DNA of 64,000 nt from Elusimicrobiota bacterium (GCA_043811535.1 JBDRNC010000020.1:8483-72482), one strand, 5' to 3'; counted from the stretch's first letter, positions 27,123 through 51,100 are shown. Notes: generated by a model not told the origin, from the letters alone. A program made the numbers and translations.

Positions 27123-27800
27123 ATGAAAAAATTAATCGTAGCGTTGGACATGCAGGATAAGAACAAGGCCCTGGCTATGGTGGACAAGATATCGCCGTGG
27201 GTTGACATGTTCAAGATAGGGCCGATACTTTTCCTTCAAAATGGGCCCGAACTCCTGCGCATGATAAAATTGAGGAGAAAGGAAGTATTTCTTGACCTGA
27301 AATTCTACGATATACCGGCTACTGTCAAACGGGCCGTTGAATCAGCGTGCGAAATGGGAGTGTATTCACTGACGCTTCACTCATCGGGCGGGGAAGAGAT
27401 GCTGAAAGCGGCCGCGCAAGTCAGCCAGAGGCCGAAACTATGGGCAGTCACGATACTAACAAGCCAGCATGCCAGCGTGGAAGATGTCGTTGAACGGGCG
27501 AAACTGGCAAAATCCTGCGGCCTTGACGGCGTGATAGCTTCGCCGCTTGAGATAAAGGCGATTAAAGAGGCGTGCGGAGCAGACTTTACCGTTGTAACTC
27601 CCGGCATTCGCACTGACGGGGCGAAAGATGATCAGAAGAGAACGGCAACTCCTGTTGAAGCCGTAACTGCGGGAGCGGATTTTATCGTGGTAGGCAGGCC
27701 GGTGATAGAGGCGAAGGACCCGATAGCCGCCGCGAGAAAAATATTGGAAGAAATAGAAGTGAAACAAGAAGGAAGAAGGAAGATAGAAGAAGGAAGATAG
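27123..27800 (+). CDS. pyrF: orotidine 5'-phosphate decarboxylase
   Basis: ALDM...DLKFYDIP...GRP motifs. The C-terminal tail EVKQEGRRKIEEGR is encoded by a GGAAGAN repeat. Confidence 0.9.
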   Translation: MKKLIVALDMQDKNKALAMVDKISPWVDMFKIGPILFLQNGPELLRMIKLRRKEVFLDLKFYDIPATVKRAVESACEMGVYSLTLHSSGGEEMLKAAAQVSQRPKLWAVTILTSQHASVEDVVERAKLAKSCGLDGVIASPLEIKAIKEACGADFTVVTPGIRTDGAKDDQKRTATPVEAVTAGADFIVVGRPVIEAKDPIAAARKILEEIEVKQEGRRKIEEGR

Positions 27801-27835
27801 GTTTACTTCAATCTTCCGTCTTCCATCTTCGGTCC
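27768..27835. repeat. GGAAGAN heptad array plus its imperfect complement (hairpin across the pyrF stop)
   Basis: GAAGAAGGAAGA (left arm) pairs with TCTTCCGTCTTC (right arm) at 11/12 positions. The stop codon TAG lies at the top of the stem. Confidence 0.75.
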
Positions 27836-27858
27836 GTGATACAAAGAAAGGCGAAAAA

Positions 27859-28434
27859 GTGAAACCCGAACAGATAAAACAGTTGTTTGAACAGCATAAA
27901 GCCTTGTTAAGCGGGCACTTCTTATTATCCAGCGGGCTGCATTCCGACACCTATTTCCAGTCGGCGCTGATACTCCAGCATCCTAACGAGGCGGAAAAGC
28001 TCGCTTCTGCGCTTGCCGGTAAGATATTAAAAGATATCCCCGAAATTGACGTCGTGGTTTCTCCAGCTATGGGCGGCATAATCATCGGTCAGGAAGTAGC
28101 GGCTCAGATAGGCTGCCGGGCGATATTTACGGAGCGGGTTGAAAACAAGATGACGTTTCGCAGAGGATTTCAGATAGAAAAGGATGAAAAATGCCTGGTA
28201 GTGGAGGATGTCGTAACTACCGGTCTGTCCACGCGCGAAGTTGTAGAGGTAATAAAAACGCTTGGCGGCAGTGTTGTCGCTGTCGCGTCGCTTGTGGACA
28301 GGAGCGGAGGCAAGGCCGATCTGGGCGCTCCGCTGTTTTCGCTGCTCGCCCTGGAAGTCAAAAGCTATAAGGCAGAAGAATGTCCGATGTGCAAAGAGGG
28401 AAGCCAGCCAATAAAACCCGGAAGCAGAAAATAA
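27859..28434 (+). CDS. pyrE: orotate phosphoribosyltransferase
   Basis: 191 aa with PRTase motif LVVEDVVTTGLS and a GTG start. Confidence 0.9.
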   Translation: MKPEQIKQLFEQHKALLSGHFLLSSGLHSDTYFQSALILQHPNEAEKLASALAGKILKDIPEIDVVVSPAMGGIIIGQEVAAQIGCRAIFTERVENKMTFRRGFQIEKDEKCLVVEDVVTTGLSTREVVEVIKTLGGSVVAVASLVDRSGGKADLGAPLFSLLALEVKSYKAEECPMCKEGSQPIKPGSRK

Positions 28435-28508
28435 TTGCTAAATTGCCAAATTGCTAAATGGCTGAAAAGCTTTTAACCATTTAGCCATAAAGCCATTTAA
28501 CCATTAAC
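28433..28508. repeat. octad-word hairpin, family B copy 2
   Basis: AATTGCTAAATTGCCAAATTGCTAAATGGCTGAAAAGC-TTTTAACCATTTAGCCATAAAGCCATTTAACCATTAAC. Confidence 0.75.
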
Positions 28509-28522
28509 ATGAAAGGAATTCT

Positions 28523-29485
28523 ATGATAACTTATAAGAAATCTGGCGTAAACATTGACGCGGGAAACGAGCTGGTAAGGCGTATCAAAAGACGCCTGCCG
28601 AAGATAGGCGGTTTCGGGGGCGTATTTCCGCTTTCAGGAACGAAATATAACCTTGTCAGTTCCACGGACGGCGTCGGAACCAAACTTAAGCTGGCATTCA
28701 TACTCAACAAGCACGATACCGTAGGGATAGACCTTGTCGCGATGAGTGTAAACGATATTATCTGCTGCGGGGCGAAACCGTTATTTTTCCTGGATTACTT
28801 CGCGTGCGGAAAACTGAACGTTAATACCGCCGAGAAGGTCGTTTCAGGCATAGCGAAAGGCTGCAAACTCGCCGGCTGCGCGCTCATCGGCGGGGAAACG
28901 GCCGAGATGCCGGGTTTCTATCCTCCCGGCGAATACGACCTGGCAGGCTTCGCGGTAGGCGCGCTTGAAAAGGGGAAAGAAATAACCGGGAAAAGGATAC
29001 GGCCCGGCGACGTTGTTATCGGACTTCCGTCATCCGGACCCCACTCCAACGGCTATTCGCTCATAAGAAAAGTGCTGTCAAATAAGGAGATAAGAAAATA
29101 CCGGAAAGAACTGCTCGCTCCCACAAGGATCTATGTTAAGGAAATCTTAAAGTTGTTGTCAACCGTCAACCGTCAACTGTCAACTGTCGTTCACGGTATT
29201 GCCCATATTACGGGCGGAAGCTTTTATGACAAGATTGAAAGGATTCTCCCGGAAAAATGCAGGGTAATCATTAAAAAGAATTCATGGAAAGTTCCCGAGA
29301 TATTCAGACTCATTCAGAAGAAAGGCAAGATGAAAGATAAGGAAATCTACCGCACCCTGAACATGGGGATAGGTATGGTTCTTGTGGTCGGAGAGAAAGA
29401 GAGCAGGAGAATAAGAGAAAAGATCAAAGGCGCTAAGATAATAGGATATGTGGCAAAAGGAACAAGAGGAGTAGACGTCGTATAA
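28523..29485 (+). CDS. purM: AIR synthetase
   Basis: 320 aa with STDGVGTK, DYFA and AHITGGSF motifs. It contains an in-frame heptad-repeat insertion (next feature). Confidence 0.95.
   Translation: MITYKKSGVNIDAGNELVRRIKRRLPKIGGFGGVFPLSGTKYNLVSSTDGVGTKLKLAFILNKHDTVGIDLVAMSVNDIICCGAKPLFFLDYFACGKLNVNTAEKVVSGIAKGCKLAGCALIGGETAEMPGFYPPGEYDLAGFAVGALEKGKEITGKRIRPGDVVIGLPSSGPHSNGYSLIRKVLSNKEIRKYRKELLAPTRIYVKEILKLLSTVNRQLSTVVHGIAHITGGSFYDKIERILPEKCRVIIKKNSWKVPEIFRLIQKKGKMKDKEIYRTLNMGIGMVLVVGEKESRRIREKIKGAKIIGYVAKGTRGVDVV
29158..29189 (+). repeat. GTCAACY heptad array inside the purM coding sequence
   Basis: GTCAACC GTCAACC GTCAACT GTCAACT GTCG encodes STVNRQLSTVV. The region between YVK and the HxxAHxTGG motif is about 6 aa longer than I recall for E. 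coli PurM. Confidence 0.8.
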
Positions 29486-29502
29486 TGACAAAGCACAAAT
29501 GA

Positions 29503-29565
29503 TCCGACTTCGCATGCGACCACCTGCTATTTATTTAACCGAAGTCCCTCTTTCGGGGAGACTCC
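29503..29565 (-). repeat. 63-nt element E, left (inverted) copy
   Basis: The reverse complement is GGAGTCTCCCCGAAAGAGGGACTTCGGTTAAATAAATAGCAGGTGGTCGCATGCGAAGTCGGA, roughly 88-90% identical by eye to 31656-31719. Confidence 0.85.
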
Positions 29566-29666
29566 ATTGAAAATAATAATGAAGTCGCAAAATAAATTCA
29601 AATATATAAATCAAAAATTGTTTTAAGCTTTGATATTGTAGTTATATTTTGACATTTGAATTTAAT

Positions 29667-30266
29667 ATGATTGTTAACTTGGGTGTTTTAATTTCCGGCG
29701 GGGGGACGAATTTGCAGGCGATAATCGATGCCTGCCAATCAGGCATACTGAAAGATATCGCGCAGATAGCGCTGGTCGTTTCCAATAAGGCGGAGGCATT
29801 CGGGCTTGAACGCGCTAAGAAACACGGGATACCGGCGCTGTGGATAAATTCTAAGAATTTTCCGGATAATCAGTCATTTTACAAGAAAGTATCAAGCGAG
29901 CTCAAAAGGCATAGGGTGAATATTGTGTGTCTCGCGGGCTACATGCGCATGGTTGACCCGTGCCTGATAAAAGATTTTAAGAAAAAGGTCCTTAACATTC
30001 ACCCGGCGCTGCTGCCGAAATTCGGCGGGAAAGGCATGTACGGGCATTTCGTCCACGAAGCGGTAATAAAGGCCGGCGAGCCGGAATCGGGCGCTACGGT
30101 TCACATGGTGGACGAACAGTACGACCACGGCCCGATAGTTCTCCAGTATAAAGTACCTGTTTTCCCGAAAGACACCGCCGACGTGCTGGCAGAGAGAGTG
30201 ATTGAAGTCGAGCACAGAATATATCCCGAAGCGATTCTTAAAGTGATAACTGGAGGAAAACAATGA
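29667..30266 (+). CDS. purN: phosphoribosylglycinamide formyltransferase
   Basis: LGVLISGGGTNLQAIID and NIHPALLP motifs. I moved the start to ATG 29667. Confidence 0.9.
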   Translation: MIVNLGVLISGGGTNLQAIIDACQSGILKDIAQIALVVSNKAEAFGLERAKKHGIPALWINSKNFPDNQSFYKKVSSELKRHRVNIVCLAGYMRMVDPCLIKDFKKKVLNIHPALLPKFGGKGMYGHFVHEAVIKAGEPESGATVHMVDEQYDHGPIVLQYKVPVFPKDTADVLAERVIEVEHRIYPEAILKVITGGKQ

Positions 30267-31561
30267 TATCTCGCTATACTAGAAAAGAAATGGCCGCTAT
30301 TTGGTCTGAGGAGAACCGCTTCAGGACAATGCTTGAAGTGGAGATACTCGCCGCCGAGGCGATGGCAAAAACCGGGAAAGTGCCGAAATCGGCGATTCCG
30401 CTCATCAGGAAGCGCGCGAAGATCAACGTAAAACGGATACAAAAAATCGAGGAAACGGTAAAACATGACGTCATTGCTTTCCTCACTCAGGTAGGCGAGA
30501 CGATCGGCCCGCAGGCAAGGTTCCTGCATCAGGGGATGACCTCGTCCGATGTGCTGGATACGGCTACAAGCGTCCAGCTGAGGCAGTCGTGCGCTCAGAT
30601 ATTAACCGGGATAAACAATCTTCTGAAAACGCTCAGGCGGCTTGTCGTAAAATACAAGAAAACACCCATGATGGGCCGCACTCACGGCATTCACGCCGAG
30701 CCAATCACGTTCGGTTTCAAGGCGGCTTCATGGTATTCCGAGATGGTCAGGGCCAAAGCGCTGATAGAAAACACGAAAGATACCGTAAGTTACGGGAAGA
30801 TATCGGGCGCGGTCGGCACTTACGCGCATCTTGACCCAAAAGTTGAGAAATATGTCTGTTCCAAACTGGGATTGAAGCCGGAGCCCGTTTCCACCCAAGT
30901 GGTTCCCAGGGACAGGCACGCCGCGTACCTTTGCCGGTTTGCCATTGTAGGCGGCTCAATTGAAAGGATAGCGTTGGAGATAAGGCACCTGCAGAGGACC
31001 GAGGTTCAGGAAGCGGAAGAACCGTTTACAAAGGGGCAGAAGGGCTCATCGGCGATGCCCCACAAAAGAAACCCGATTCTATCGGAGAATCTTTGCGGGC
31101 TAGCGCGTTTGCTGAGGGGCTACGCGATGACCGGGCTTGAAAACATAGCGCTGTGGCACGAGCGCGATATAAGCCACTCGTCCGCCGAAAGAGTCGTCTT
31201 TCCCGACGCTTCGATAACGCTGGATTTCATGCTCGCGAGGGCGAATCATCTCTTATCAGGCCTGCAGGTGTATCCCAAAAACATGCTGGCGAACCTGAAC
31301 AGGTCGCAGGACATAATATTTTCCGGCAGGCTGCTGCTTGCTCTTGTGAGCAAGGGGATTTCGAGGGAGAAGGCATACGCCATAGTGCAGAAAAACGCCT
31401 TTAAGGCCCGCGAAGAGAACGTAAAGTTCGACAAATGCGTCTTGCACGACCCTGAAATAACAAAGCTCCTTAAGAAGCCTGAAATATCGGATTGCTTCAA
31501 GCTTGACCATCATTTCAGGAACCTGCCATACATCTTTAAGCGGGCGCTTTCCGAAAGATGA
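30263..31561 (+). CDS. purB: adenylosuccinate lyase
   Basis: 432 aa with the fumarate-lyase signature GSSAMPHKRNP. ATGA overlap with purN. Confidence 0.95.
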   Translation: MISRYTRKEMAAIWSEENRFRTMLEVEILAAEAMAKTGKVPKSAIPLIRKRAKINVKRIQKIEETVKHDVIAFLTQVGETIGPQARFLHQGMTSSDVLDTATSVQLRQSCAQILTGINNLLKTLRRLVVKYKKTPMMGRTHGIHAEPITFGFKAASWYSEMVRAKALIENTKDTVSYGKISGAVGTYAHLDPKVEKYVCSKLGLKPEPVSTQVVPRDRHAAYLCRFAIVGGSIERIALEIRHLQRTEVQEAEEPFTKGQKGSSAMPHKRNPILSENLCGLARLLRGYAMTGLENIALWHERDISHSSAERVVFPDASITLDFMLARANHLLSGLQVYPKNMLANLNRSQDIIFSGRLLLALVSKGISREKAYAIVQKNAFKAREENVKFDKCVLHDPEITKLLKKPEISDCFKLDHHFRNLPYIFKRALSER

Positions 31562-31655
31562 CGGCTTTTCCGGGAAGTTGGTGGAGCCCCTCCGAAAGCC
31601 CTCCTGGCGGGGCAAAAATTAAGCGACCTCCCGCGACCTCATTAACGTATTTAAC

Positions 31656-31719
31656 GGAGTCTCCCTAAAAAAGGGACTTCGGTTAAATAACATAGCAGAT
31701 GGTCGCATGCGCAGTCGGA
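31656..31719 (+). repeat. element E, right (direct) copy
   Basis: GGAGTCTCCCTAAAAAAGGGACTTCGGTTAAATAACATAGCAGATGGTCGCATGCGCAGTCGGA. Confidence 0.85.
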
Positions 31720-31817
31720 CGGTTCCACTCGTATTCCTCCCCTGGCGGAGTCAGGGGATTCAATAACGCGGGATTGAATTATCCGCAAAAATCTACTAAA
31801 ATATCGATTATCCGGAC

Positions 31818-31914
31818 GGGCAGTTAGCTCAGCGGAAGAGCGGGCCGACGCGTCGGCCTGGCCGCAGCGGCCACTCCGGGATCGTTGAAGGAATCTTTCG
31901 TATCGTTTCATTAC
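31818..31914 (+). pseudogene. tRNA-Val-derived pseudo-tRNA unit 1 (97-bp phase)
   Basis: The first 25 nt and the TGGCCGCAG segment are identical to the real tRNA-Val. The anticodon arm is replaced by GGCCGA-CGCG-TCGGCC, and there is no T-arm or 3' acceptor strand. Confidence 0.75.
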
Positions 31915-32011
31915 GGGCAGTTAGCTCAGCGGAAGAGCGGGCCGACATATCGGCCTGGCCGCAGCGGCCACTCCGGGAATCGCTAAAAGATTTATTGTAT
32001 TGTTACATTTT
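31915..32011 (+). pseudogene. tRNA-Val-derived pseudo-tRNA unit 2
   Basis: Same layout as unit 1, with hairpin GGCCGA-CATA-TCGGCC (stem conserved, loop changed). Confidence 0.75.
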
Positions 32012-32083
32012 GGGCAGTTAGCTCAGCGGAAGAGCGCTCGCCTTACACGCGAGTGGCCGCAGGTTCAAATCCTGCACTGCCCA
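32012..32083 (+). tRNA. tRNA-Val (anticodon UAC)
   Basis: Hand-folded cloverleaf: acceptor GGGCAGT/ACTGCCC, D-arm GCTC/GAGC, anticodon arm CTCGC-CTTACAC-GCGAG, T-arm GCAGG-TTCAAAT-CCTGC. No CCA is encoded. Confidence 0.9.
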
Positions 32084-32194
32084 TGATAGATAAAAGTTCC
32101 AGCGCAGCCGACAAGTAATTGGGGAAACGAAAGTTATTTGAGCGGATTTTGCGCCCCGTCTTTCGGGGCACTGCCTATATCAGCGGGAAAGCAA

Positions 32195-33061
32195 ATGGAA
32201 AAAATAAATCATTCCGAGATTTTTGAAATATTCCAGGATGTTTTTTCCAAACTTACCGGTCTTAATATCGCCTTCATCGATACCAACGCAGATTTCATAA
32301 AACGCGCCGGAGATTCAAGGGGTTTTTGCATCCTCATAGGCTCCATTGAAAGGAAAACCGGCGTTTCAAACTGCTGGATCAGTAATTACAGGGCTTGCAA
32401 GAGGGTCATTTCCGAGCAGAAGCCGCAGGTATATAAATGCCATGCCGGACTCACTGAGATAATCGTTCCCGTTCTGGACCACGGGAAAGCTATCGGAGCG
32501 ATCATTACCGGCCAGATAAGGACGAAGGGAAGAAGCAGATACCAGCCAGTTTCAATTCCCATCGGTTTCCGCGTAACTCAAAACCAGCTCAGGTCTGAAT
32601 TCTCAAAGGTACAGGAAATGCTTCCTTCACAGGTAAGGGCTGCGGCGAGAACTCTATATCTTCTCGCGAATGTCTCCTTCAGGGACGAACTGGTGCTCTT
32701 CCTGTCCCAAGGCAGGAAACACCGCTCATCCAACATGAAGAACATTATTCTGAAAGCGACTAACTTCATTCGGGAAAACTTCAAAGATCCGGAAATCTCG
32801 CTTAAACGGGTCGCGGACGAGGTGAGTCTTAATTCGTATTACCTGAGCCATATCTTCAAGAAGGAGCTTAAATCCACATTCGTGAATTACCTTACCAGAA
32901 TACGCATGGAAGACACGCTAAGGCAGTTGAAACACCAGCCCGACAAGAGCATCAAGGAGATCGCGTACGAATCGGGTTATTCCGATCCCTACTATTTCAG
33001 CAAAGTATTCAAGAAATTCTACCATTCATCCCCTCTGAAATACCGCCTAAAAAACGCCTAG
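32195..33061 (+). CDS. AraC-family transcriptional regulator with N-terminal PocR-like sensor domain
   Basis: C-terminal double HTH (YYLSHIFKK...GYSDPYYFSKVFKK). The N-terminal region has a YKCHAGL...VPV...G motif typical of PocR. Start is probably ATG 32195. Confidence 0.8.
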   Translation: MEKINHSEIFEIFQDVFSKLTGLNIAFIDTNADFIKRAGDSRGFCILIGSIERKTGVSNCWISNYRACKRVISEQKPQVYKCHAGLTEIIVPVLDHGKAIGAIITGQIRTKGRSRYQPVSIPIGFRVTQNQLRSEFSKVQEMLPSQVRAAARTLYLLANVSFRDELVLFLSQGRKHRSSNMKNIILKATNFIRENFKDPEISLKRVADEVSLNSYYLSHIFKKELKSTFVNYLTRIRMEDTLRQLKHQPDKSIKEIAYESGYSDPYYFSKVFKKFYHSSPLKYRLKNA

Positions 33062-33170: not shown

Positions 33171-33195
33171 GATTATAGATACAACGGGAGGGCTT

Positions 33196-36607: not shown

Positions 36608-38058
36608 AATTAATACATGGACTCCTGCTCGCGTCGCTTGTAACGGTATCAAATATGACAGAAACATCTGCCGCGGCACTGCCGCCGTCTTCGACAATCA
36701 AGGTTCAAGGTAGGAACCTTATAGTCAATAATTCGACCTTCACCGTGAAGGGGGTTTGTTATTCGCCGGTGAAGGCCGGATATACGAACGCCAATTTCGA
36801 CTGGTGGTCGGACCAGAACGCCTGCAAATCGGATTTTCCTTTGATAGCGGCCATGGGGGCGAACTGTATAAGGACTTACTCGCCATCGGCTGCGGACAGT
36901 TATGTGCAGGCAGTGCTTGACGCGGCGGCACGTCACGGCCTGTATGTTATATTGGGCTACAGCGTCCCGTGGAACCAGGATTTTTCCGTAGCAGCCAACA
37001 GGACTCCGGTCGTGAACGGTTTTACGGACTTCGTGAATAAATGGAAGGCGCATCCCGCGGTTCTCATGTGGTGTTTCGGCAATGAGATAGACGTGCATAC
37101 GGCCAGCGCCGCCGGCTGGTTCACTCTGCTTGACCAGGCTTCTGCGGCCGCTCATGCCGCGGAAGGGGCCGGGTATCATCCCGTGACTACGGCAAACCAG
37201 GAAATGGACGAAGTGGCCGTTTACGACTCCTCGGTCCCGAACCTGGACGTATGGGGATTGAACCTTTACAGGGGAAAAACCTTCGGCGCGATATTTTCGG
37301 TTTATTCTTCCACAAAACCTTTCATGATAACCGAATGGGGATGCGATTCCTTTGACGGCCGCGTCGGAAACGCTAACGAAACGCTGCAGTCAGAATACAT
37401 CGCGGGCCAGTGGGAAGACATAAACGGCCACCTTTCGCATAAAAATCCCGCGGAATGCTGCATAGGCGGGTGCCTTTTTGAATGGTGCGACGAATGGTGG
37501 AAGGGGGCGTCGTCGCCCGGGGATCTTTCGACTTTGGGAGGCGGGGGCGTGAAAGGGCCTGCCGTTCAGGATACGGCGGCGGACTGGACCAATGATAATT
37601 ACGCCGACCCCAACATGAATGAAGAATGGTGGGGCATAGTAGCGATTGAACTTGATTCATACACGCGGAAACCGAAAGAGGCTTATTACGCGCTGGGCAG
37701 GCTGTGGGAAGGAAGCACGGACGCTTCAGGCGATGCCGGCGGTTCCGCGGCGGGTATCATACAGGGTGAAGTGAGGAATTACCCGAATCCTTTCATTGCC
37801 GACGGAAATAACTCAACAAGGATAAAGTTCGCCGTAAGCGGCGCGCCCGAATTGAATATAGAGATCTTTGACCTGTCGGGCGCGAAGGTGCGCGAACTGA
37901 GCGGGATAAATTCCGCGGGCTCATTAAGGGAAGCTTACTGGGACGGGAAGGATTCGGATTCCGGTGTCGTTCCAAGCGGGCTCTATATCTGCAAAGTCAG
38001 CGCGGCATTGTCCGGAAGGGAAGAGATTAAATACCGCAAGATAGCGGCAGTTAAATAA
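36604..38058 (+). CDS. clan GH-A glycosidase-like protein, paralogue 3, with FlgD-Ig/T9SS-type C-terminal domain
   Basis: FGNEID and MITEWGCDSF motifs. C-terminus NYPNPF...IEIFDLSGAKV...WDGKDSDSGVVPSGLYICK...KIAAVK. ATGA overlap with the upstream gene. Confidence 0.6.
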   Translation: MKLIHGLLLASLVTVSNMTETSAAALPPSSTIKVQGRNLIVNNSTFTVKGVCYSPVKAGYTNANFDWWSDQNACKSDFPLIAAMGANCIRTYSPSAADSYVQAVLDAAARHGLYVILGYSVPWNQDFSVAANRTPVVNGFTDFVNKWKAHPAVLMWCFGNEIDVHTASAAGWFTLLDQASAAAHAAEGAGYHPVTTANQEMDEVAVYDSSVPNLDVWGLNLYRGKTFGAIFSVYSSTKPFMITEWGCDSFDGRVGNANETLQSEYIAGQWEDINGHLSHKNPAECCIGGCLFEWCDEWWKGASSPGDLSTLGGGGVKGPAVQDTAADWTNDNYADPNMNEEWWGIVAIELDSYTRKPKEAYYALGRLWEGSTDASGDAGGSAAGIIQGEVRNYPNPFIADGNNSTRIKFAVSGAPELNIEIFDLSGAKVRELSGINSAGSLREAYWDGKDSDSGVVPSGLYICKVSAALSGREEIKYRKIAAVK

Positions 38059-38073
38059 GCCGGAAGAGGGAAG

Positions 38074-39057
38074 ATGGAAGGCGGAAGAGTAATTAAAACG
38101 GTATTCCTTATCACACTGACAACTGTCATCTGTCAACTGTCAACCGCTGTTTATGCGCAGTTCCCGTACGCGTGCGGCGCCCGGGCGATAGGGATGGGCG
38201 GAGCTTTCAGCGCCGTATCTGCGGAGATATCGGCGCTGTACTGGAATCCAGCCGGGCTGGGATACTTGCAGAAAAAGGAAATATCGGCGATGTACGACAA
38301 GGATTTTATTGATACTAAAAACTGTTTTCTGGGTTACGGCCAGCCTGCGGCGGAGACCGGAGGATTCGGGTTCGGCTGGTACAGAGTGGCGAATGATTTC
38401 GAAAAGACGGATATTTCCGGGAATTCGCTGGGTTCGGGAGAGTATTCCGGGAATGTCTTGACCCTGGGCGCCGGTTACTACAGGGGCCTTCCATTTTCGG
38501 TCGGAATAAGCCTGAAATATATGGATGAAAGGATAGACAGCTACTCGATATCAGGGGCGGCGCTGGACGCGGGGCTTTTGTACGAGTATTCCTCGTTCAG
38601 ATTCGCGGTTGTCATGCAGAACGTTCTGAATACAGGGATGAGGGGCGATTCAACGGCTGGCGGAGAGTCAAAAGAGGATATCCCGTTTTCAGGAACGCTG
38701 GGAATAGCGTATTCAGGCCTGAGTGGAATAGAGTTCGCGGATAAACGTCCGCCAGCGGTCTCCGCGGCGCAGGAAAAAGAGCAAGAAAAAGAAGTCACAA
38801 AGGGAATCGTCGGCATTTCGTATATCATGGGATGCGATGTTACGGTCACGCCGGGCAACCCCTCGAAAACCGCGTTCAGTCCGGGTTGCGAGGTCTGGGT
38901 GAATGAAACGATAGGATTCAGGGCGGGCTACAGGCGGCTGAGGAACGTAACGGCCGGGCTGTCATTCAAATACGAGATATTCAGGATAGATTACGCTTTC
39001 GTGGCAAACCCGGACCTTGAAAACGGGAACATAGTGTCATCGTCGATGTATTTTTGA
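38074..39057 (+). CDS. PorV/PorQ-like outer-membrane beta-barrel protein
   Basis: N-terminal GARAIGMGGAFSAVSAEISALYWNPAGL motif, beta-strand-rich sequence and terminal aromatic residue (MYF). Confidence 0.6.
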   Translation: MEGGRVIKTVFLITLTTVICQLSTAVYAQFPYACGARAIGMGGAFSAVSAEISALYWNPAGLGYLQKKEISAMYDKDFIDTKNCFLGYGQPAAETGGFGFGWYRVANDFEKTDISGNSLGSGEYSGNVLTLGAGYYRGLPFSVGISLKYMDERIDSYSISGAALDAGLLYEYSSFRFAVVMQNVLNTGMRGDSTAGGESKEDIPFSGTLGIAYSGLSGIEFADKRPPAVSAAQEKEQEKEVTKGIVGISYIMGCDVTVTPGNPSKTAFSPGCEVWVNETIGFRAGYRRLRNVTAGLSFKYEIFRIDYAFVANPDLENGNIVSSSMYF

Positions 39058-39062
39058 TAAAT

Positions 39063-43220: not shown

Positions 43221-43880
43221 ATGAAGAAAATATTGATGATTCTGCTAGTCACCAGTCACTGGTCACTAGTCACTATGTTTTGCGGATGCAGCAAGAATCC
43301 CGTTACACAGCTGATCGAACCTGTAACGGTCAATGCTTCTCCGCAGTGGAGCGGCAACTGGACGCTTTACGACGATGAATTGAAAACTGGCGGGGATGTT
43401 ATGATGATCGGATGGGGTGGCAATTTTACGGTTGATTTCAACTGCCGCGAAAATCCCTGCGAAGGCGTAAAATGCATAAAACTTGACTGGAACGGGGGCG
43501 CGGTTGAAATTTCCGGAGGAAGCACGGACCTTTACACAGGATTTTCGCTGATCGTTGCCAAAAGCTACAGCGACTATCTCTCTGCGAGCAGGGACCTGTC
43601 CCCGGGAGGCTACACGAAAGCCAGTTTTTACGCCAGGAAAGGTTTTATGTCCTCCAATGCCGTGTTGAGAATTGAGAGCCCGAACGGGAATAGCGATTCC
43701 GCAGCTCCCAACAACGTCTGGGAAGGAGCGCTTACGGAGAATTGGAAAGAATACACGCTTAACATTACGGGAAGTTTGTCGGCGGCCAGGCATTTTATGA
43801 ATATCGTCTTAAAAACAAGCGACGCGAAAAAGGGAAGCGGCGCGACGGTATATATTGACAATATCAAATTGACCAAATAA
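43221..43880 (+). CDS. CBM-like lipoprotein (family member 3)
   Basis: Lipobox FCGC. The signal-peptide h-region is encoded by the CTRGTCA heptad array (43245-43274). The protein ends VYIDNIKLTK. Confidence 0.45.
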   Translation: MKKILMILLVTSHWSLVTMFCGCSKNPVTQLIEPVTVNASPQWSGNWTLYDDELKTGGDVMMIGWGGNFTVDFNCRENPCEGVKCIKLDWNGGAVEISGGSTDLYTGFSLIVAKSYSDYLSASRDLSPGGYTKASFYARKGFMSSNAVLRIESPNGNSDSAAPNNVWEGALTENWKEYTLNITGSLSAARHFMNIVLKTSDAKKGSGATVYIDNIKLTK

Positions 43881-44472: not shown

Positions 44473-45357
44473 ATGAATAATGCTAAATTTATGTATTTTG
44501 TCTGCATCTTCATTCTTCTATCATCCTTCTTCCTGTCCTCATGCGCTCAGAAAAAAGACCGGCTTACGGTAAGCACCATGGTAATAGCGATAGATCCCGC
44601 CGCAGACCAGAATATCGCGACGGGAGGGACACTGACCCTCACTGCTGCATGCAGGAGCGCGCGGGAATCAAGCCTTGACATCCAGCCGTCGTGGACAGTT
44701 GACAGCAACCTTGGAACTTTCAGCGCGGCAAAGGGAAAGACCACTACTTTCACGGCAGGCACAACACCGGGTACCTGCGGAATTTATGCCACATACAATG
44801 ATATTACTTCAAGCGTAACGGTAACGATAGGTCCTGCGGGGGGCGGCGGGACTGCCTATACTCTGCTTGCGGATGCGGGCGCGTCCACCGAACTGAAGGA
44901 TCCCGGCGCGGGAATATTCCAGTTTTTTGACGGCGGAGACGGCTCGCCCGACGCGGCCCCCTGGTTGATAGGGACTGTTACCGCTTTGCCGGGCTGCCCG
45001 GTTGACGGCACCGACTGCACGCAAGTGACTTACACCGGCGGAGCGGCCGGACACTGGGGGGGATTCTTTTTGGAATTTAACGCGGCAAAGAGCCTTTCGG
45101 CGTATTCAAGGCTGACCTTTTATACAAAAGGAGGCGCGGGGGGCGAAACTTTCAAGATAAAGATTAAAGGCGGCGGGACCGAAACAACGGTTGCAATAAC
45201 GTCTTATATAACATTGACGACATCATGGCAGAAAGTCACAATACCATTTGCCGATTTCGGCAGTGTAGACTTCTCTTCCGTCACCAATGCCTTTGTAATG
45301 GCTTTTGAAGGCAATACACCCGGAACAGTATATATAGATTTTATCAGATATGAGTAG
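44473..45357 (+). CDS. lipoprotein with Big_2-like Ig domain + CBM-like domain (family member 4)
   Basis: Lipobox LSSC. TLTLTA...WTVDS...TFTAG is Ig-like. The C-terminus ...W.KVTIPFADF...VYIDFIRYE is CBM-like. Confidence 0.45.
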   Translation: MNNAKFMYFVCIFILLSSFFLSSCAQKKDRLTVSTMVIAIDPAADQNIATGGTLTLTAACRSARESSLDIQPSWTVDSNLGTFSAAKGKTTTFTAGTTPGTCGIYATYNDITSSVTVTIGPAGGGGTAYTLLADAGASTELKDPGAGIFQFFDGGDGSPDAAPWLIGTVTALPGCPVDGTDCTQVTYTGGAAGHWGGFFLEFNAAKSLSAYSRLTFYTKGGAGGETFKIKIKGGGTETTVAITSYITLTTSWQKVTIPFADFGSVDFSSVTNAFVMAFEGNTPGTVYIDFIRYE

Positions 45358-45461
45358 GGTGTTACTATGGAAATTCATTAAATCAAAGAGTTTGACAAGG
45401 AATACATGTTAAATAAGGTATACCGGTAACATAAAGAATAAATAATATTTATATTACTCTA

Positions 45462-45490
45462 TTGACAACGGTATAATAATAAGTTAAACT
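45462..45490 (+). promoter_or_regulatory. candidate promoter TTGACA-17-TAAACT for the riboswitch operon
   Basis: Read directly. The predicted TSS lies about 25 nt before the aptamer. Confidence 0.5.
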
Positions 45491-45517
45491 GTTATCGATA
45501 ACATACAAATCTCACCG

Positions 45518-45622
45518 CAAATCAAGGTCCGATAGGGCAAACTCCGGGTAACCGGAGGGCGCAAAGTCAACGGCCCCGTGACAAACATTCCTTTAACGGG
45601 GGGCCGGACTGCCGAAACAAAT
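45518..45622 (+). promoter_or_regulatory. c-di-GMP-I (GEMM-I) riboswitch aptamer
   Basis: GGGCAAAC-UCCGG-GUAA-CCGGA-GGGCGCAAAGUC-AACGGCCCCG...CGGGGGGCCGGA-CUGCCGAA. The GNRA-capped P1b hairpin, the (A)CGCAAAG junction, the GC-rich P2 and the 3' GCCGAA all match the GEMM-I layout. Confidence 0.75.
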
Positions 45623-45658
45623 CCAAAATCACGGTTAAAAGGTCGATTTTCGAAAGAT

Positions 45659-45693
45659 CCTTATATTTCCAATAATATATTGGAAATATAAGG
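45659..45693 (+). other. perfect 15-bp AT-rich hairpin between aptamer and RBS
   Basis: CCTTATATTTCCAAT-AATAT-ATTGGAAATATAAGG. No U-tract follows. Confidence 0.8.
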
Positions 45694-45765
45694 TGATGGA
45701 CCGTTGCCATAGAATGCATCAGTCAGGTGAGGAAAAACACCCGTCAAGGGAATCAGGAGGACAGG

Positions 45766-46512
45766 ATGAAGAAAGTATTGTTGTTAGTAATCGCAGTTTC
45801 ACTGGCGGCCGCAATGTCATCATTCGCCGCAAGCTCAATCAGCAGGAGCACTTTTACGGCTTCGGTTGATTTCAGCACGTTTCAGGGAGTTACATACATC
45901 AATGTAGCGCTAAAGAACATTTACAGCGGGGCGAACGCGTCGCAATTCTCGTTTACTCCGAGTGCCGGGGCGCTAGGCATCGGAACGACGTGGTACACGG
46001 CGAACGAATATGCCGTCATATTCACGACATGGACCAAGGATAACGTCGGGCGCGTGCTTATTTATACGGATAATACCGCCGCAGACGCAAATCCAAAATA
46101 CGCTGGCGCGGGCAATGCCGCGGGTTTGGTCTGTTCCACATCGACCGTCTCCGGAGACGATCCGATCAATCTGTGCTGGCGCGCTACCGATGTATCAACC
46201 ACAACGTACAAGATCGGGTGGTATCTGCAGGGAACAGCCATGAAGCTGTACGGCCTGGGCCTTTCACAGGACTACTATTGTTTTCTTTGGATGAAGGATA
46301 AAGGATCGGATGGAAATTGGTATAATGTAGACAACGGCTACGCTTCAATAAAGTCGTTTGACAACAGCGGCTCATGGCTGCAGCATGCGGAGAGCCAGCT
46401 GGGAACAACGGCTTCGCCGGATTACTTTTATCTCGGCGCGAACCTGGAAAAAGCCAAAGCCGGCAGGACGTACAAGACTTCCACGCTCAGGTTTGACCTT
46501 GTAATGGATTAA
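45766..46512 (+). CDS. secreted protein of unknown family (shares a ~200-aa domain with the 47720 ORF)
   Basis: AGGAGG-N6-ATG and signal peptide MKKVLLLVIAVSLAAAMSSFA. Shared blocks are IYTDN..ANP[KR]Y[AT]G...GLVCST and Y.Y.GAN.E....GR.Y. Confidence 0.7.
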   Translation: MKKVLLLVIAVSLAAAMSSFAASSISRSTFTASVDFSTFQGVTYINVALKNIYSGANASQFSFTPSAGALGIGTTWYTANEYAVIFTTWTKDNVGRVLIYTDNTAADANPKYAGAGNAAGLVCSTSTVSGDDPINLCWRATDVSTTTYKIGWYLQGTAMKLYGLGLSQDYYCFLWMKDKGSDGNWYNVDNGYASIKSFDNSGSWLQHAESQLGTTASPDYFYLGANLEKAKAGRTYKTSTLRFDLVMD

Positions 46513-46537
46513 GAAAACCCGGCGCAGAGGAAAAAGA

Positions 46538-47299
46538 ATGTTTTGCAGAAAACTGTTAATCATGTTTTTAACGGCTATTGTCCCGGTTGCTCCACTGAGG
46601 GCCATCGGCGTAGATCCTACGCGATATATCTTTAAGGCCGAACACGGCAAAGAGTGTAACGGCAAATTCCTTGTGACGAACGACCACGACTGTGAAATGC
46701 AGGTTGATATCGAGATCAGCCGCGGCATAGAATCCGGGGAGAACAAGGATTTGCTTAAAGATACGGGATGGCTGAATATTAAGGAAAAGTCATTCGTCCT
46801 GCAGCCGAAGGAAGGCAGGACGGTCAACTTTTCCGTTAATGTCCCCGATGGAACAGCCGGGACATTTTCTGCAAAGATATCTTTCATTGACAGGTCAAAC
46901 GAAGCTTTCAGTTCTTCAGTCACGATACCTGTTTACGTGGTGATAAAAGGCACGGAGAGGGTTGAGTGGGACATGGATTCGTTTGAGATAAACGAAACGC
47001 CCGCAGGTCTGTCAGGCGGGCTGAGGCTGAAAAACAAAGGCAACGTTCATTTTTATGCGAACGGCACCATAATCATATGTGACCGCGGCGGAAATGAGTG
47101 TTACCGTTCAAGTGTCGGAGGCGGGAGGGCGGTATTTCCATCGACCGTCACGTTGCTTCCTCTGGATGTGTCAAAACTCAGCCTCAAGAACGGCAGGTAT
47201 GACGCGGAAATAGAGATCAAAGGCTACGGCGAACAACCCAGAAGCTTCAAATATAACCTTGAGAAAAAGGGAAGCAAATACATCATAAGGAGGCTGTAG
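46538..47299 (+). CDS. secreted two-domain beta-sandwich-like protein (function unknown; chaperone-like is only a guess)
   Basis: Signal peptide and alternating beta-strand pattern (FLVTNDHDCEMQVDIEI...TVNFSVNVP...TIPVYVVI). Confidence 0.4.
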   Translation: MFCRKLLIMFLTAIVPVAPLRAIGVDPTRYIFKAEHGKECNGKFLVTNDHDCEMQVDIEISRGIESGENKDLLKDTGWLNIKEKSFVLQPKEGRTVNFSVNVPDGTAGTFSAKISFIDRSNEAFSSSVTIPVYVVIKGTERVEWDMDSFEINETPAGLSGGLRLKNKGNVHFYANGTIIICDRGGNECYRSSVGGGRAVFPSTVTLLPLDVSKLSLKNGRYDAEIEIKGYGEQPRSFKYNLEKKGSKYIIRRL

Positions 47300-47301
47300 C
47301 C

Positions 47302-47760
47302 ATGCTTAGATCTATATGCGCCGCGCTTGCGTGCCTGTTGTTTGTTCCGTCAATATTCGGATTCAATCTTGATCCTCTTTCTGCCGATTTAAAACTCAAG
47401 AAGGGCGAAAAACACGAGCTTTTGTTCAGGATAAAGAACATTTACAAGGAGCCTATCATAATCGAGGTTTCAGCGATAGATAAGGCCGCCGTACATGAAA
47501 ATACCGAGGAACAGGCGCAAAAACCGATTTGGATAACCAAAATAAGACCGGAAAGACTAAGGCTGGACAAGGATAAATACACGTACCTGACCGCGATTAT
47601 CATGGTACCGCAGGATTCCGGAGATTCGCTTTCGGCCGAGATCATTTTTAAGGTTTCGGGATCGAAGAAAAAATCAAAGGTTGACAAAACGGTTGCTGTG
47701 CCTGTTAGCGTAACGATAAATGCTGACAAAAAGGCCGGCAAAACAAATACTGAAAAATAG
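47302..47760 (+). CDS. small secreted beta-sandwich-like protein resembling the N-domain of the 46538 product
   Basis: AGGAGG RBS and signal peptide. HELLFRIKNIYKEPIIIEVSA...AVPVSVTI parallels the 46538 N-domain pattern. Confidence 0.4.
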   Translation: MLRSICAALACLLFVPSIFGFNLDPLSADLKLKKGEKHELLFRIKNIYKEPIIIEVSAIDKAAVHENTEEQAQKPIWITKIRPERLRLDKDKYTYLTAIIMVPQDSGDSLSAEIIFKVSGSKKKSKVDKTVAVPVSVTINADKKAGKTNTEK

Positions 47761-48925
47761 ATATCTCACTGCAGGCGCCGCGTTGCTTCTGGTGTTTCTG
47801 CTGGTTTGCGGTGCGCGTTGCTGGGCCAGGGGCGTTTATCCGGTCTATTCCGATGCCGGAATGCCCGGCGATAATCTCTACACATGGGGTGACTGGTCCA
47901 AAGGCGCTCTGCTGGAAGAATCAACCGAATGCCCGGGAGGAAATGCGGAGGGTTTTCTCTGCATGAAGACATCCTGTCCTGCGGGAGCTAGCTATTGCGG
48001 CTACGGCATTTTCTTTAACAGTCCCGGAATAGATTTAAGCGCGTATCTGAACGGAAGCCTGAGGTTCTGGGTATACTCGACAACAGGCGACGCCAAGATA
48101 GAGATAGAGGACTGGGACGGGGATAATTCCGTTGTCTGGCTGCGAAGCTGCGGCTGGAACGAGATTAGCAGCAAGAATGTCTGGACACTGGTCAGCATAC
48201 CTATAAGTTCGTTTACCGCCGTAAATCCTAATCTTTCCCTTTCTAAGATAAAATATCCTTTCAAATTCACGCTTGACCATCAGGGCAATTACGCATATAC
48301 CGACCTGGTCAGGTGGGTTGAAAACCTTGCTACTAACACAGTTTACGCGTCCCTGCAAAAAACCGGCAGCACCTCTAATGTTTCGGTTTCGTCAATCACC
48401 TGGAATCCGGTTTATCCTTCAACATGGAATGTCGCCGATACATATATAAAGGTTGAATACGACCCGGGCACGATAAACTGGGGCATCAGAATCTACACGG
48501 ATAACAAAGACGCGGGCGCGAATCCCCGCTATACGGGACCTTTGGATGACGCGTCAGGGCTTGTGTGTTCCACAGGCGCTTTCAGCGCGGATACCCCCTT
48601 AAAAATGTCGTGGGCAGTGGAAGATTCAACGCATTCCGAGGCCGAACTGGGTTTCGGGACGCCGGACGACTGGGTGGCGGGCGGTTTCGCCTATAAATGG
48701 CTTATAGATAAAAGCCTGGGGAATCTGGACGGCGACAATCTCGGGTACGCGTCTTTGTGGACGAATGAAGGCCTGCTTTACGGAACATGGGACAGCGGGA
48801 CGCCGTCAACACGGGCGTGGAAAAACTCTCCGAATTACATTTACTTCGGGGCGAATTTTGAAACGGTCAGGCCGGGCAGAAGATACGGGACAAACCGGCT
48901 GATAGTTGAGCTGTATTATGAATAA
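47720..48925 (+). CDS. secreted protein: CBM-like N-domain + the novel domain shared with 45766
   Basis: The N-terminal half has the CBM-like pattern (LRFWVYS...W.LVSIPISSF). The C-terminal half aligns to the 45766 product. The start is uncertain (41-nt overlap with the upstream ORF). Confidence 0.55.
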   Translation: MLTKRPAKQILKNRYLTAGAALLLVFLLVCGARCWARGVYPVYSDAGMPGDNLYTWGDWSKGALLEESTECPGGNAEGFLCMKTSCPAGASYCGYGIFFNSPGIDLSAYLNGSLRFWVYSTTGDAKIEIEDWDGDNSVVWLRSCGWNEISSKNVWTLVSIPISSFTAVNPNLSLSKIKYPFKFTLDHQGNYAYTDLVRWVENLATNTVYASLQKTGSTSNVSVSSITWNPVYPSTWNVADTYIKVEYDPGTINWGIRIYTDNKDAGANPRYTGPLDDASGLVCSTGAFSADTPLKMSWAVEDSTHSEAELGFGTPDDWVAGGFAYKWLIDKSLGNLDGDNLGYASLWTNEGLLYGTWDSGTPSTRAWKNSPNYIYFGANFETVRPGRRYGTNRLIVELYYE

Positions 48926-50084
48926 AATATTTAAAACGGCATTGATCCTGGTTTTCCTGGCGGCCGGTGCGGAACGTTCCTCGGCCAGCACGCCGGGCGG
49001 CGCCGTACAGAGAATCGACGTGTTTACATTTTCCGCCGCATTGTATCTTGCGGATACACAACTGCCCCGGATAATCCACACGGGGCTCGAAAGGATATCG
49101 TCGGTTACAAAATATGCCGTAATTAAGGGGACGGCTGCGGATAATATAGGACTTAAGAGCCTGTCAATTGCTTATTATTCTTCAGGCGATACCGCGTTTT
49201 CAACCGCTACAATAGCGCTAAACGGCGAAACACAGTATTGCTTCAATCAGGCCATGACTCTGGGTTCTGCTAAGAATTCAGATTTCTTTTACAAAATAAC
49301 GGCTGAGGATGTGAATAACGGCATAACCATCTGGCCCGAATCCGGGGAATTCAATTGCGTGAAGATAACTCCTGGCAGAAGCAAGAAGTTCGACGTGAAC
49401 GGAGGCAAACTCATTCTTCCGGACGGGAATCCCGACGACGGCGAGACCTCGATCGAACTGCCCGACGGGGCGCTTGACGCGCCGGCGGACATCTCTATAA
49501 GCGAGATTGATCCTGACGACGAAAGTGTCCCGCGCGGCAATGCCCCGGCTATAAGCCACAGGCCGCTCGCAGTTTACAGATTTGAGCCATCCGGGCTTTT
49601 TTTCAAGAAAACCGTAAAAATTAATCTGCTTTTCAGGGATTTTAACAAGGACGGAGTAGTTGACGGGACTTTATACGGCGTTAACGACATGAAAATAATG
49701 TGGTGGGACGGTTTTGAATGGCGGCTGCTGGCGTCATCGGTTGACAAAGATATGAATCTGGTCTCGTCGCGTATCAAGCACTTCAGTTATTACGCGGTAT
49801 TCCCGGTGCCGGCGCTGACAGATGATGATTACAGGCCAAAGGAAAAAATCATAACACCGGCAAGCATTGACGGGTACAATGATTACGCCACATTCGGCGC
49901 GGTAGGTCCTGATGAGATGATAAACGTGTTTGATGTTACCGGACAGAGAATCAGGGAAATCAGAGGGGACATAACTTGGGATGGCAAAGACGACAGGAAC
50001 GAACTTGTTGAAAGCGGCATATATATATATCAGATAAAACTAAAGGACAAGATAATCAGCGGGACGATAGTTGTGGCAAAATAA
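48918..50084 (+). CDS. secreted protein with FlgD-Ig/T9SS-type C-terminal domain
   Basis: Signal peptide MNKIFKTALILVFLAAGA. C-terminus INVFDVTGQRIREI...WDGKDDRNELVESGIYIYQIK...TIVVAK. Confidence 0.55.
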   Translation: MNKIFKTALILVFLAAGAERSSASTPGGAVQRIDVFTFSAALYLADTQLPRIIHTGLERISSVTKYAVIKGTAADNIGLKSLSIAYYSSGDTAFSTATIALNGETQYCFNQAMTLGSAKNSDFFYKITAEDVNNGITIWPESGEFNCVKITPGRSKKFDVNGGKLILPDGNPDDGETSIELPDGALDAPADISISEIDPDDESVPRGNAPAISHRPLAVYRFEPSGLFFKKTVKINLLFRDFNKDGVVDGTLYGVNDMKIMWWDGFEWRLLASSVDKDMNLVSSRIKHFSYYAVFPVPALTDDDYRPKEKIITPASIDGYNDYATFGAVGPDEMINVFDVTGQRIREIRGDITWDGKDDRNELVESGIYIYQIKLKDKIISGTIVVAK

Positions 50085-50128
50085 GGGCAGACAGAAGACG
50101 GAAGAATGAAGATTGAAGCGGACTACAT

Positions 50129-51100
50129 ATGAAGAATACATTATTGGGAGTTAACATTTTGAAGATAATTAGGATGATGATTGTGTTTATACTTCCATCT
50201 TCCATCTTCCTTCTTCCATCTGTTATTGAAGGAGCATTCAAGGATTCCGGTTGGGGTGCGCGTCCTCTAGGAATGGGCGGAGCGTTTACCGCGGTGGCGG
50301 ACGATTCGAATGCGCCGCTTTTTAATCCGGCGGGAATTAGCCTGGCGGGCCGGATTGAAGTGACCTTCATGTCGGCAAAACTGTTTGCGGGACTGGAAGG
50401 CGTGGAAGTAGGGCAGAACTTTTTCAGCTGCATATATCCGCTGGGCGGAAAAAGGGGCGACATGGCGTTGAGCTGGTCATCTTTAAACTCCCCGGCTCTG
50501 TACCGCGAGGATTCGCTGGCTCTTTCGTACAGCCGTTACCTGCAAAAAGCCGATAATATCAACTTTTCGTTAGGCGCCAATTTCAAATATCTTAACCATG
50601 AATATACTCTTGACAAGAGAACGCTCAATGATCCAGTCTTCCGGAGTAAGAACGCTGCCGGAAATTTCGGGCTGGATCTAGGAGTCCTGGCCGTATGGCC
50701 GGAAAACGGGTTTTCAATGGGCGTCATGAGTAAGAATATCAATCAGCCGGATATCGGTATAAAGACTGAGGACCTAGTTCCAAACGAAAACGCGCTGGGA
50801 TTTTCTTTCTATCAGGAGAAAATGCGGAATCCGAGTCTCGAATATTTTACGTTCGCGATTGATCTGGTAAGCAGATTGAAGGATCTGGATGTTAGGGCGG
50901 GTGCCGAAAGCTGGTTCTTTAACGGAAGTTTCGCCGTTAGACTCGGTTATGCGACGCATTCCGTCACTTCGGGGCTGGGATATGAATTCAAAGCCGGCGG
51001 GAATACAAGTTTTGTTATTGACTACGCGTTCGCTTGGCCGCTTGAAATAGAAAAGACCGTGGGCACTCACCGCATGGGGCTTACTCTCCGGTTACCGTAA
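50129..51100 (+). CDS. PorV/PorQ-like outer-membrane beta-barrel protein
   Basis: WGARPLGMGGAFTAVADDSNAPLFNPAGI motif. The signal peptide is encoded by a CTTCCAT heptad array (50192-50222). Confidence 0.6.
   Translation: MKNTLLGVNILKIIRMMIVFILPSSIFLLPSVIEGAFKDSGWGARPLGMGGAFTAVADDSNAPLFNPAGISLAGRIEVTFMSAKLFAGLEGVEVGQNFFSCIYPLGGKRGDMALSWSSLNSPALYREDSLALSYSRYLQKADNINFSLGANFKYLNHEYTLDKRTLNDPVFRSKNAAGNFGLDLGVLAVWPENGFSMGVMSKNINQPDIGIKTEDLVPNENALGFSFYQEKMRNPSLEYFTFAIDLVSRLKDLDVRAGAESWFFNGSFAVRLGYATHSVTSGLGYEFKAGGNTSFVIDYAFAWPLEIEKTVGTHRMGLTLRLP

Follow-up and report, generated by a model that had tools for sequence, protein, structure and literature searches.

The DNA analysed here is a 64,000-nucleotide stretch from an uncultured Elusimicrobiota bacterium (GCA_043811535.1, JBDRNC010000020.1:8483-72482; hereafter the window, numbered from its first letter), in which short arrays of tandem 7-nt units (heptads) are found both between genes and, in-frame, within them. 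Based on comparison with orthologues, the arrays within open reading frames (ORFs) are probably the coding subset of a lineage-wide heptad population resembling the short tandemly repeated repetitive (STRR) sequences of cyanobacteria, kept where the encoded protein is little constrained and not acting as phase switches. They are confined to the cores of three signal peptides, the C-terminal tail of PyrF and variable loops in three enzymes (PurM, PurQ and, at two places, PurL), and look tolerated rather than recruited.

Five in-frame arrays (in purM, in the pyrF tail and in three signal peptides) had been named in an original prediction made from the sequence of this DNA, and all five were recovered with their coordinates and frames. 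Further in-ORF arrays were found twice in purL, in purQ, weakly in pyrK, and over a start codon at 38062-38089. The in-ORF arrays are as follows.

15964-15994, + strand: purL array 1, AGACTGA/AGACGGA, 2.2 copies at period 14; encodes TETEDGRLKTEEY, part of a variable loop that follows the WSEHCKHK motif
17227-17259, + strand: purL array 2, degenerate AAGNNGG, 4.7 units; encodes KDGSRKKEAGRK
18668-18691, + strand: purQ array, AGGGTCA, 3.4 units, in the loop between RW[VI]YLK and NCIWTK
25839-25858: weak array within the pyrK ORF
27766-27800, + strand: pyrF tail array, GAAGRNN, covering the last codons and stop of pyrF; 5' arm of an intercistronic hairpin
29158-29188, + strand: purM array, GTCAACC twice and GTCAACT twice; encodes STVNRQLSTVV just before VHGIAHITGG
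38062-38089, + strand: start-codon array, GGAAGAN, over the ribosome-binding region, start and first codons (MEGGR) of the UPF0164/PorP-like gene 38074-39057
38115-38146, + strand: signal-peptide array of the 38074 gene, GTCAACT word; encodes the core LTTVICQLSTAV
43245-43276, + strand: lipoprotein signal-peptide array of the 43206 gene, CYRGTCA word; core LVTSHWSLVT
50192-50221, + strand: signal-peptide array of the PorP/SprF-like gene 50129-51100, CTTCCAT word; core ILPSSIFLLPS

Pfam assigned host genes to OMPdecase (pyrF), AIRS/AIRS_C (purM), PorP_SprF and UPF0164, and the anticipated 7-residue periodicity of the encoded peptides was visible. Word orientation fits the local amino-acid requirement, with purine-rich GAAGANN giving E/G/R/K in tails and loops and its pyrimidine-rich complement giving L/P/S/F/I in a signal peptide.

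Orthologous segments of the array-bearing proteins

The nearest relative with DNA for comparison was Logan SRR22388160 (loci L081, L166 and L167), which has the same gene order, a PurM 82-83% identical to that of the window and a DNA identity of ~60%. PurM of the window is 100% identical to a protein from a metagenome-assembled genome at NCBI. The closest PurM relatives belong to the Endomicrobiia/Endomicrobiales, and a further PurM homologue (P0002) is 80% identical. Arrays could be found in the nearest relative at the same sites as in the window, with the same word in the 38074 gene and different words in the 43206 and 50129 signal peptides and in the purQ loop.

For purM, the array had been described as an insertion of roughly six residues. 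Against the solved PurM structures from E. coli and Neisseria, six extra residues do lie exactly at the array, between helix ...LELIEKV and strand VHAIAHLTGG, such that the array loop separates the helix from the strand bearing the HxxAHxTGG motif. The array did not make this insertion, however: in the 320-residue PurM orthologues found across the Endomicrobiia, where they form the majority, the loop is of the same length and occupies the same alignment columns (e.g. SANNKSLRTAV and QTPNAKLRTAI), and in the remaining orthologues it is 2-4 residues shorter or 9 longer. The heptad periodicity is absent from purM of the relatives at L081 and L162-L165. Taken together, the alignments indicate an old, variable and indel-tolerant loop that the array overlaid and did not insert. 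The segment lies in a loop: in an AlphaFold2 model, residues 213-222 are coil between helix 205-212 and strand 223-228, although the model was mediocre (mean predicted local distance difference test score 63) and served for the secondary-structure context of the loop only. No RNA structure (z = 0.3) or partner array was predicted for the purM array.

The first purL array segment aligns without gaps to its orthologues (TEEHDGRKKKRVY and similar), as a length-neutral overlay. The second lies within an insertion of 18 residues not present in distant PurL homologues, and at this position 7 residues are inserted in an Endomicrobia homologue; this array may be associated with a true insertion. In PurQ, the same surface loop of the nearest relative (L081, 169-202) is encoded by a 4.4-unit array of an unrelated word, AAACCCG, and the two loop lengths are one codon apart.

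The pyrF tail had been expected to be lineage-specific, and an alignment of orthologues agreed, PyrF of the window being 225 residues long against 213-218 in five relatives. Its last seven residues, RKIEEGR, run past the end of the L081 protein (KQTKR*), and the tail lies outside the end of the OMPdecase domain. At the DNA level, alignment with L081 placed an insertion of ~70 nt at the pyrF/pyrE junction, consisting of the GAAGRNN array, an 8-nt loop and a CTTCNNT array. The tail is thus a by-product, the ORF continuing into the left arm of the hairpin until the first in-frame stop.

Three signal peptides could be compared. Both arrays of the 38074 gene are kept in the nearest relative, with identities of 0.87 (GGAAGAN) and 0.83 (GTCAACT) against 0.61 gene-wide; the signal-peptide array has the same word, position and array length, and signal-peptide length differs by one codon. 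In the 43206 gene, GTCAC-type units of the window correspond to degenerate CTTAC-type units in L167, with position, array length and signal-peptide length all equal. In the 50129 gene, CTTCCAT stands in the window and ACTCATA in L166, the signal peptides being three codons apart. Where orthologues lack arrays, their signal peptides are ordinary and match in length or nearly so; the arrays therefore did not create these peptides, contrary to the proposal that their hydrophobic cores were built from arrays. The signal peptides predate the arrays, which overlay the hydrophobic core. The peptide LPSSIFLLPS of the 50129 gene recurs in a homologue, P0278, that is 45% identical and was available as protein sequence only. 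A peptide-level lag-7 survey of the homologues' signal peptides was not used, because low-complexity peptides score at every lag.

Tolerance of arrays within ORFs, as first proposed, was therefore borne out. The arrays are mostly overlays on segments whose orthologues have the same or near-same length, the exceptions being the pyrF tail (+7 residues) and probably one purL loop. For annotation, where signal peptides, tails or loops encoded in these genomes contain periodic peptides, the periodicity should be treated as a by-product of DNA repeats and not as a protein motif.

The array population and its paired stems

Nearly every gene of the window lies on the + strand, and its G+C content is 49%. 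The first half is a nucleotide-biosynthesis supercluster (carB, nrdR, nrd, dcd, guaB, guaA, purC, purS, purL, purQ, purF, purD, pyrB, pyrC, pyrK, pyrD, pyrF, pyrE, purM, purN and purB), and the second half encodes glycosidases and envelope proteins. For detection of arrays, a strict lag-7 test was applied to the whole window, giving 14 period-7 arrays against 0.0 in dinucleotide-preserving shuffles; Tandem Repeats Finder reported ~30. When periods 4-15 were scanned, the only enrichment besides period 7 was a pair of period-8 arrays. Period-8 repeats (GCTGAATG, CCATTTAA, AATTGCTA and TTTAACCA, 3-4 copies each) stand beside heptads in the purF-purD and pyrE-purM spacers (20469-20536 and 28433-28505).

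Array length is uniform, intergenic and in-ORF arrays alike having a mode of 30-33 nt and 4.3-4.7 imperfect units (~31 nt, ~4.4 units); the longest array has about 5 units, with no longer tract in the window. Several are exact at period 14, as two alternating unit variants. By midpoint, 10 of 30 arrays fall in coding sequence, which makes up 90% of the window, and 20 in the non-coding 10% (p = 1.4e-13), an intergenic enrichment of ~18-fold, and most arrays abut start or stop codons. The word families are AATTGCT/AATTACA, GGAAGAN, GTCAACY, CTAATGG, ACGAAAT, AGTTCNT and CYRGTCA. The claim that the same words build intergenic and in-gene arrays was confirmed for two of these: GTCAACY, the purM word, also forms an intergenic array at 51184-51218, and GGAAGAN recurs at 38062-38089, 50089-50118, 54463 and 54639, with its complement at 27806-27834. 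The intergenic arrays that share words with in-ORF arrays, or pair with them, are as follows.

27806-27834, + strand: complementary array, CTTCNNT, four units; 3' arm of the pyrF/pyrE hairpin
50089-50118, + strand: GAAGANN array upstream of the 50129 gene; 5' stem arm
51184-51218, + strand: array upstream of tRNA-Asp, AACTGTC/AACCGTC, five units, a word common to the purM and 38115 arrays

Several other repeats were noted in the window. The same word brackets whole genes in direct orientation in two places, AGCAATT around carB (1762-1785 and 5022-5051) and CTAATRG around dcd (8599-8630 and 9326-9355). Between 54382 and 54706, a tRNA-Thr 3' end, a heptad array (AGTTGGA/AGACGGA) and ~70 nt are tandemly duplicated, 54437-54530 matching 54613-54706 with a period of 176 nt. 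A 97-nt tandem repeat at 31816-32084 (2.3 copies, 88% matches) consists of partial copies of the tRNA-Val 5' part and runs into the intact tRNA-Val at 32011-32084.

With the same detector, array density was 3.3 per 10 kb in the window, 0.5-2.4 per 10 kb in syntenic loci of Elusimicrobiota relatives, and 0.15 per 10 kb over 1.6 Mb of other loci, where most of the arrays again belonged to Elusimicrobiota relatives. Proteobacteria and other phyla had essentially none; the matches listed in PurM contig searches were mostly Proteobacteria (50-66% identity) and served only as a negative control for array density. On this distribution, heptad arrays are a trait of the clade. An assembly artefact was rejected, since in-frame arrays are present in independent assemblies from different samples. 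Among the relatives, L163 (11531-11972) and L165 (11573-12012) carry between purN and purB a small gene for a 23S_rRNA_IVP/bAvd-like four-helix bundle. Inverted heptad arrays of ~34 nt flank this gene on both sides, so that it looks like a cassette with heptad-array termini; the window has no such gene, and its purN and purB overlap.

Many arrays of the window pair as inverted repeats, giving interrupted stems of 25-30 bp. Among the in-ORF arrays, significant partners were found for the pyrF tail and 50192 arrays only. The pyrF tail array had been predicted to form the left arm of the downstream hairpin, and it folds with the 27806-27834 array at -28.2 kcal/mol (z = -3.5, 0 of 200 shuffles); an intrinsic terminator was rejected here, as there is no T-tail. 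The pyrF-pyrE spacers of L163 and L164 also hold arrays, of other words. A reading of every in-ORF array as a stem arm was likewise rejected: the 38055-38150 segment folds with z = -0.5, the purM and purL arrays have z of about 0, and none has a partner. Rfam searches matched no known RNA family at any array. Upstream, the mechanically called purS ORF (15104-15607, 167 residues) has its PurS domain only in residues 98-164, and its true start is probably near 15386, which would make the array pair at 15050-15124 (hairpin z = -4.25) intergenic.

At the 50129 gene, the arrays at 50089-50118 and 50192-50221 are complementary and form an interrupted stem enclosing the ribosome-binding site and start codon (-41.4 kcal/mol, z = -3.9, 0 of 200 shuffles). 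The L166 orthologue has the same architecture in another word, the upstream arm being made of TATGAGT units and the signal-peptide arm of ACTCATA; it folds at -43.5 kcal/mol (z = -4.3), and its AAGGA Shine-Dalgarno sequence pairs with UCCUU. A third word, GGTAAGY/CTTACNN, is used at L170 (-47.6 kcal/mol, fold z = -2.7). In all three start-enclosing stems the sense strand folds better than the antisense. In an RNAduplex cross-matrix, cognate arms paired at -38.8 and -43.3 kcal/mol, whereas arms taken from genomes with different words gave -17 to -33. DNA identity is 0.33 in the arms against 0.60 for the whole 50129 gene. The stem is thus a significant and conserved pairing over the ribosome-binding site and start with different words in the window and L166, and a suggestive one in L170. 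From its pairing, the 50192 array is predicted to be the 3' arm of an RNA stem and not a coding innovation, and the co-variation of the arms around the start codon gives a concrete regulatory hypothesis.

Long-range mRNA stems can enclose or occlude the translation-initiation region (general class, PMC8092293). The likeness to this class is that 50089-50118 pairs with codons 22-31, with the ribosome-binding site and start in or at the base of the loop; the difference is that the arms here are two complementary heptad arrays with periodic mismatches, whose word varies by genome. Elsewhere among the envelope genes, a cyclic di-GMP-I riboswitch aptamer (RF01051) was detected at 45526-45616 with 54 bits, which exceeds the gathering score. 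It lies upstream of gene 45727-46512 and heads the envelope-protein cluster whose last gene is the PorP-like one.

Mechanism and alternative readings

We propose that arrays would arise or spread everywhere and that purifying selection would strip them from constrained sequence. An array would then persist at its site while concerted evolution among its units lets the word drift. Slippage by one unit would shift the reading frame of the host gene, so the homogenising process must be length-neutral, for which intra-array conversion or template switching may be envisaged. The occurrence of the same sites with differing words at ~60% DNA identity, including in essential ORFs where single-unit slippage would be lethal, points the same way. 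The most likely role of paired arrays is to form stem-loops in mRNA, one being intercistronic (pyrF/pyrE) and one enclosing and partly occluding the translation-initiation region of the PorP-like gene; the 50192 array would be present because the signal-peptide segment is able to accommodate the stem's 3' arm.

Several points weigh against this account. The species is known here from one genome. For seven of the nine in-ORF arrays (the two in purL and those in purQ, in purM and at 38115, 43245 and 38062), no complementary partner above shuffled controls was found within 1.5 kb on each side, and, the arrays being solitary, RNA structure cannot account for most in-ORF arrays. At the 50129 start codon, the L170 stem has a duplex z of only -1.1, making it moderately significant, L169 has a signal-peptide array without a 5' arm, and the high-GC L168 has neither arm. 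The narrow length distribution, ~4.4 units in intergenic arrays too, is not predicted by simple slippage dynamics. Template-switch mutation, and not selection, could be what keeps the arms complementary, and the sites shared by two genomes could be independent hits on a few permissive sites and not common descent.

A stronger proposal is that the arrays are actively maintained and are not passive microsatellites. A length-preserving process other than slippage would hold tracts at ~31 nt, homogenise their units and keep arms complementary despite full word turnover, even in the reading frames of essential enzymes, and paired arrays with a signal-peptide arm would represent a novel kind of stem controlling the translation of outer-membrane protein genes. 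We regard this proposal as unlikely.

A related possibility is that dedicated machinery writes and maintains ~31-nt heptad tracts and that all arrays, solitary in-ORF ones among them, are functional cis elements, for example sites for a periodic RNA- or DNA-binding factor. Length is indeed quantised whatever the word or location, periodicity outlasts complete word turnover at orthologous sites, the two arms of a pair co-vary, and the GGAAGAN and GTCAAC arrays of the 38074 gene are conserved above the gene background. However, neither a candidate protein nor a sequence motif common to the arrays was found, word diversity speaks against a sequence-specific binder, coding depletion is as expected for tolerated, mostly neutral elements, and array density varies widely among close relatives in the same gene cluster. 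Such machinery seems to us quite unlikely.

Exaptation in the strict sense, whereby arrays would have been recruited as functional parts of proteins (a signal-peptide core, the PurM loop, the PyrF tail), draws on the suitability of array peptides for their surroundings, the residues being hydrophobic where a signal peptide is encoded and hydrophilic where a loop or the tail is, on the recurrence of LPSSIFLLPS in P0278 at 45% overall identity, and on the conservation of the 38074-gene arrays above the rest of that gene. We consider it improbable, given that the signal peptides and loops in array-free orthologues are as long or nearly as long, that the word, and hence the peptide, is wholly different at three of four shared sites between close genomes, and that the PyrF tail lies beyond the OMPdecase domain without a counterpart in any of the relatives.

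The arrays could also be footprints or termini of mobile elements, either resembling miniature inverted-repeat transposable elements (MITE) or repetitive extragenic palindromic (REP) doublets forming hairpins (REPIN), or left as target-site duplications, the in-ORF copies then being in-frame insertions akin to Rickettsia palindromic elements (RPE). Consistent with this are the inverted array pairs around the 23S_rRNA_IVP/bAvd-like gene in L163 and L165, a Y1 transposase gene in L165, the discrete ~70-nt insertion that the pyrF/pyrE pair represents relative to L081, and the dispersal of the same words over many sites. Little probability attaches to such an origin, however: words vary by locus and by orthologous site, unlike those of a transposing family, most in-ORF arrays add no length, solitary arrays are non-palindromic, and no transposase, Y1 included, was present among the window ORFs scanned, which were a subset.

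Phase variation, in which gain or loss of one 7-nt unit would frameshift the gene and switch it on or off, was raised in the original prediction and shares with contingency loci a unit that is not a multiple of three and a presence in surface-protein genes (three hosts encode outer-membrane or lipoproteins, an often phase-varying class; 7-bp repeats drive switching of H. influenzae HMW1A, PMC8262952), but it is highly improbable here, since the tracts of contingency loci are long, perfect and hypervariable whereas these have only 4.3-4.7 imperfect units with no long perfect tract in the window, orthologous arrays stay in-frame at the same or near-same length across ~40% DNA divergence, four or five hosts are essential nucleotide enzymes (purL, purQ, pyrF, purM and possibly pyrK) and not the dispensable surface, restriction-modification or virulence genes typical of such loci, and array-bearing ORFs are intact in every assembly examined. 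The same sites with differing words and same or near-same lengths, in two genomes whose synonymous sites are saturated, argue for concerted length-neutral evolution and against phase variation, and array-bearing genes should not be flagged as phase-variable. A tolerated coding subset of a wider heptad population therefore stays our preferred reading.

Comparison with known repeat systems

In cyanobacteria, arrays of heptanucleotides have been on record since about 1990. Beggiatoaceae, Bacteroidetes and Xanthomonas were added later, and there is no agreement on the origin or function of such arrays. The STRR heptanucleotides of heterocystous cyanobacteria have the words CCCCAGT, TTGGTCA and CAACAGT. 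As with these and with the GGGNATC heptads described below, the arrays of the window are dispersed, belong to several word families in one genome, are enriched in non-coding sequence and have about four units; the STRR descriptions, as far as checked, do not include arrays lying in-frame in enzyme loops or signal peptides. A literature search found no papers on heptad repeats in Elusimicrobia, and the window adds another phylum to those with heptanucleotide arrays.

Repeat DNA inside housekeeping genes also has a precedent in RPE, reportedly described by Ogata et al. in 2000 as one family of 100-150 bp, lying in-frame in protein-coding genes and adding 30-50 residues. The likeness is in the placement of repeat DNA in-frame in housekeeping genes at surface-exposed, tolerant positions. 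The arrays here differ in being ~31 nt long, non-palindromic when alone and built from many words, and in mostly adding no residues: in place of a one-family element that adds a peptide, length is added only by the pyrF tail (+7 residues) and purL loop 2 (18 residues). REP/REPIN elements are a family of conserved, imperfectly palindromic sequences that a RAYT transposase spreads; paired arrays do form hairpins, but no common word unites the pairs, each being built from a different one.

The GGGNATC heptads of Xanthomonas and Nostoc prefer four units, are depleted in coding sequence and lie within 50 bp of ORF ends, the unit preference having been attributed to G-quadruplex formation (Rehm et al. 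2015, PMC4692102). In the window the words are mostly not G-tracts, yet the same mode of ~4.4 units is seen; a preference for about four units with words unable to form G-quadruplexes weakens the G-quadruplex explanation as a general one.

The closest description is that of the TAACTGA heptamer repeats of marine Beggiatoaceae, some Cyanobacteria and Bacteroidetes, which occur as sets of 2-6 tandem copies, mostly intergenic near start or stop codons with an in-ORF minority at the protein periphery, and for which a post-transcriptional role has been suggested (MacGregor 2015, PMC4679880). The two systems have in common tandem 7-nt units placed mainly between genes near ORF ends, peripheral in-ORF copies, and the rule that words bearing stop codons can overlap ORF ends only. 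Neither the described STRR words (CCCCAGT and others) nor TAACTGA or GGGNATC were found among the window words, GTCAACT sharing with TAACTGA only an AACTG core. Save for the unit words, then, the features of STRR/TAACTGA-type repeats are all present: tandem 7-nt units, dispersed intergenic positions near ORF ends and peripheral in-ORF copies. Where the TAACTGA system has one word, the window has many, and inverted pairs, of which just one was reported for TAACTGA, are common. The arrays described here further differ from TAACTGA repeats in occupying internal loops of essential enzymes, in sharing sites between species with differing words, and in belonging to the phylum Elusimicrobiota.

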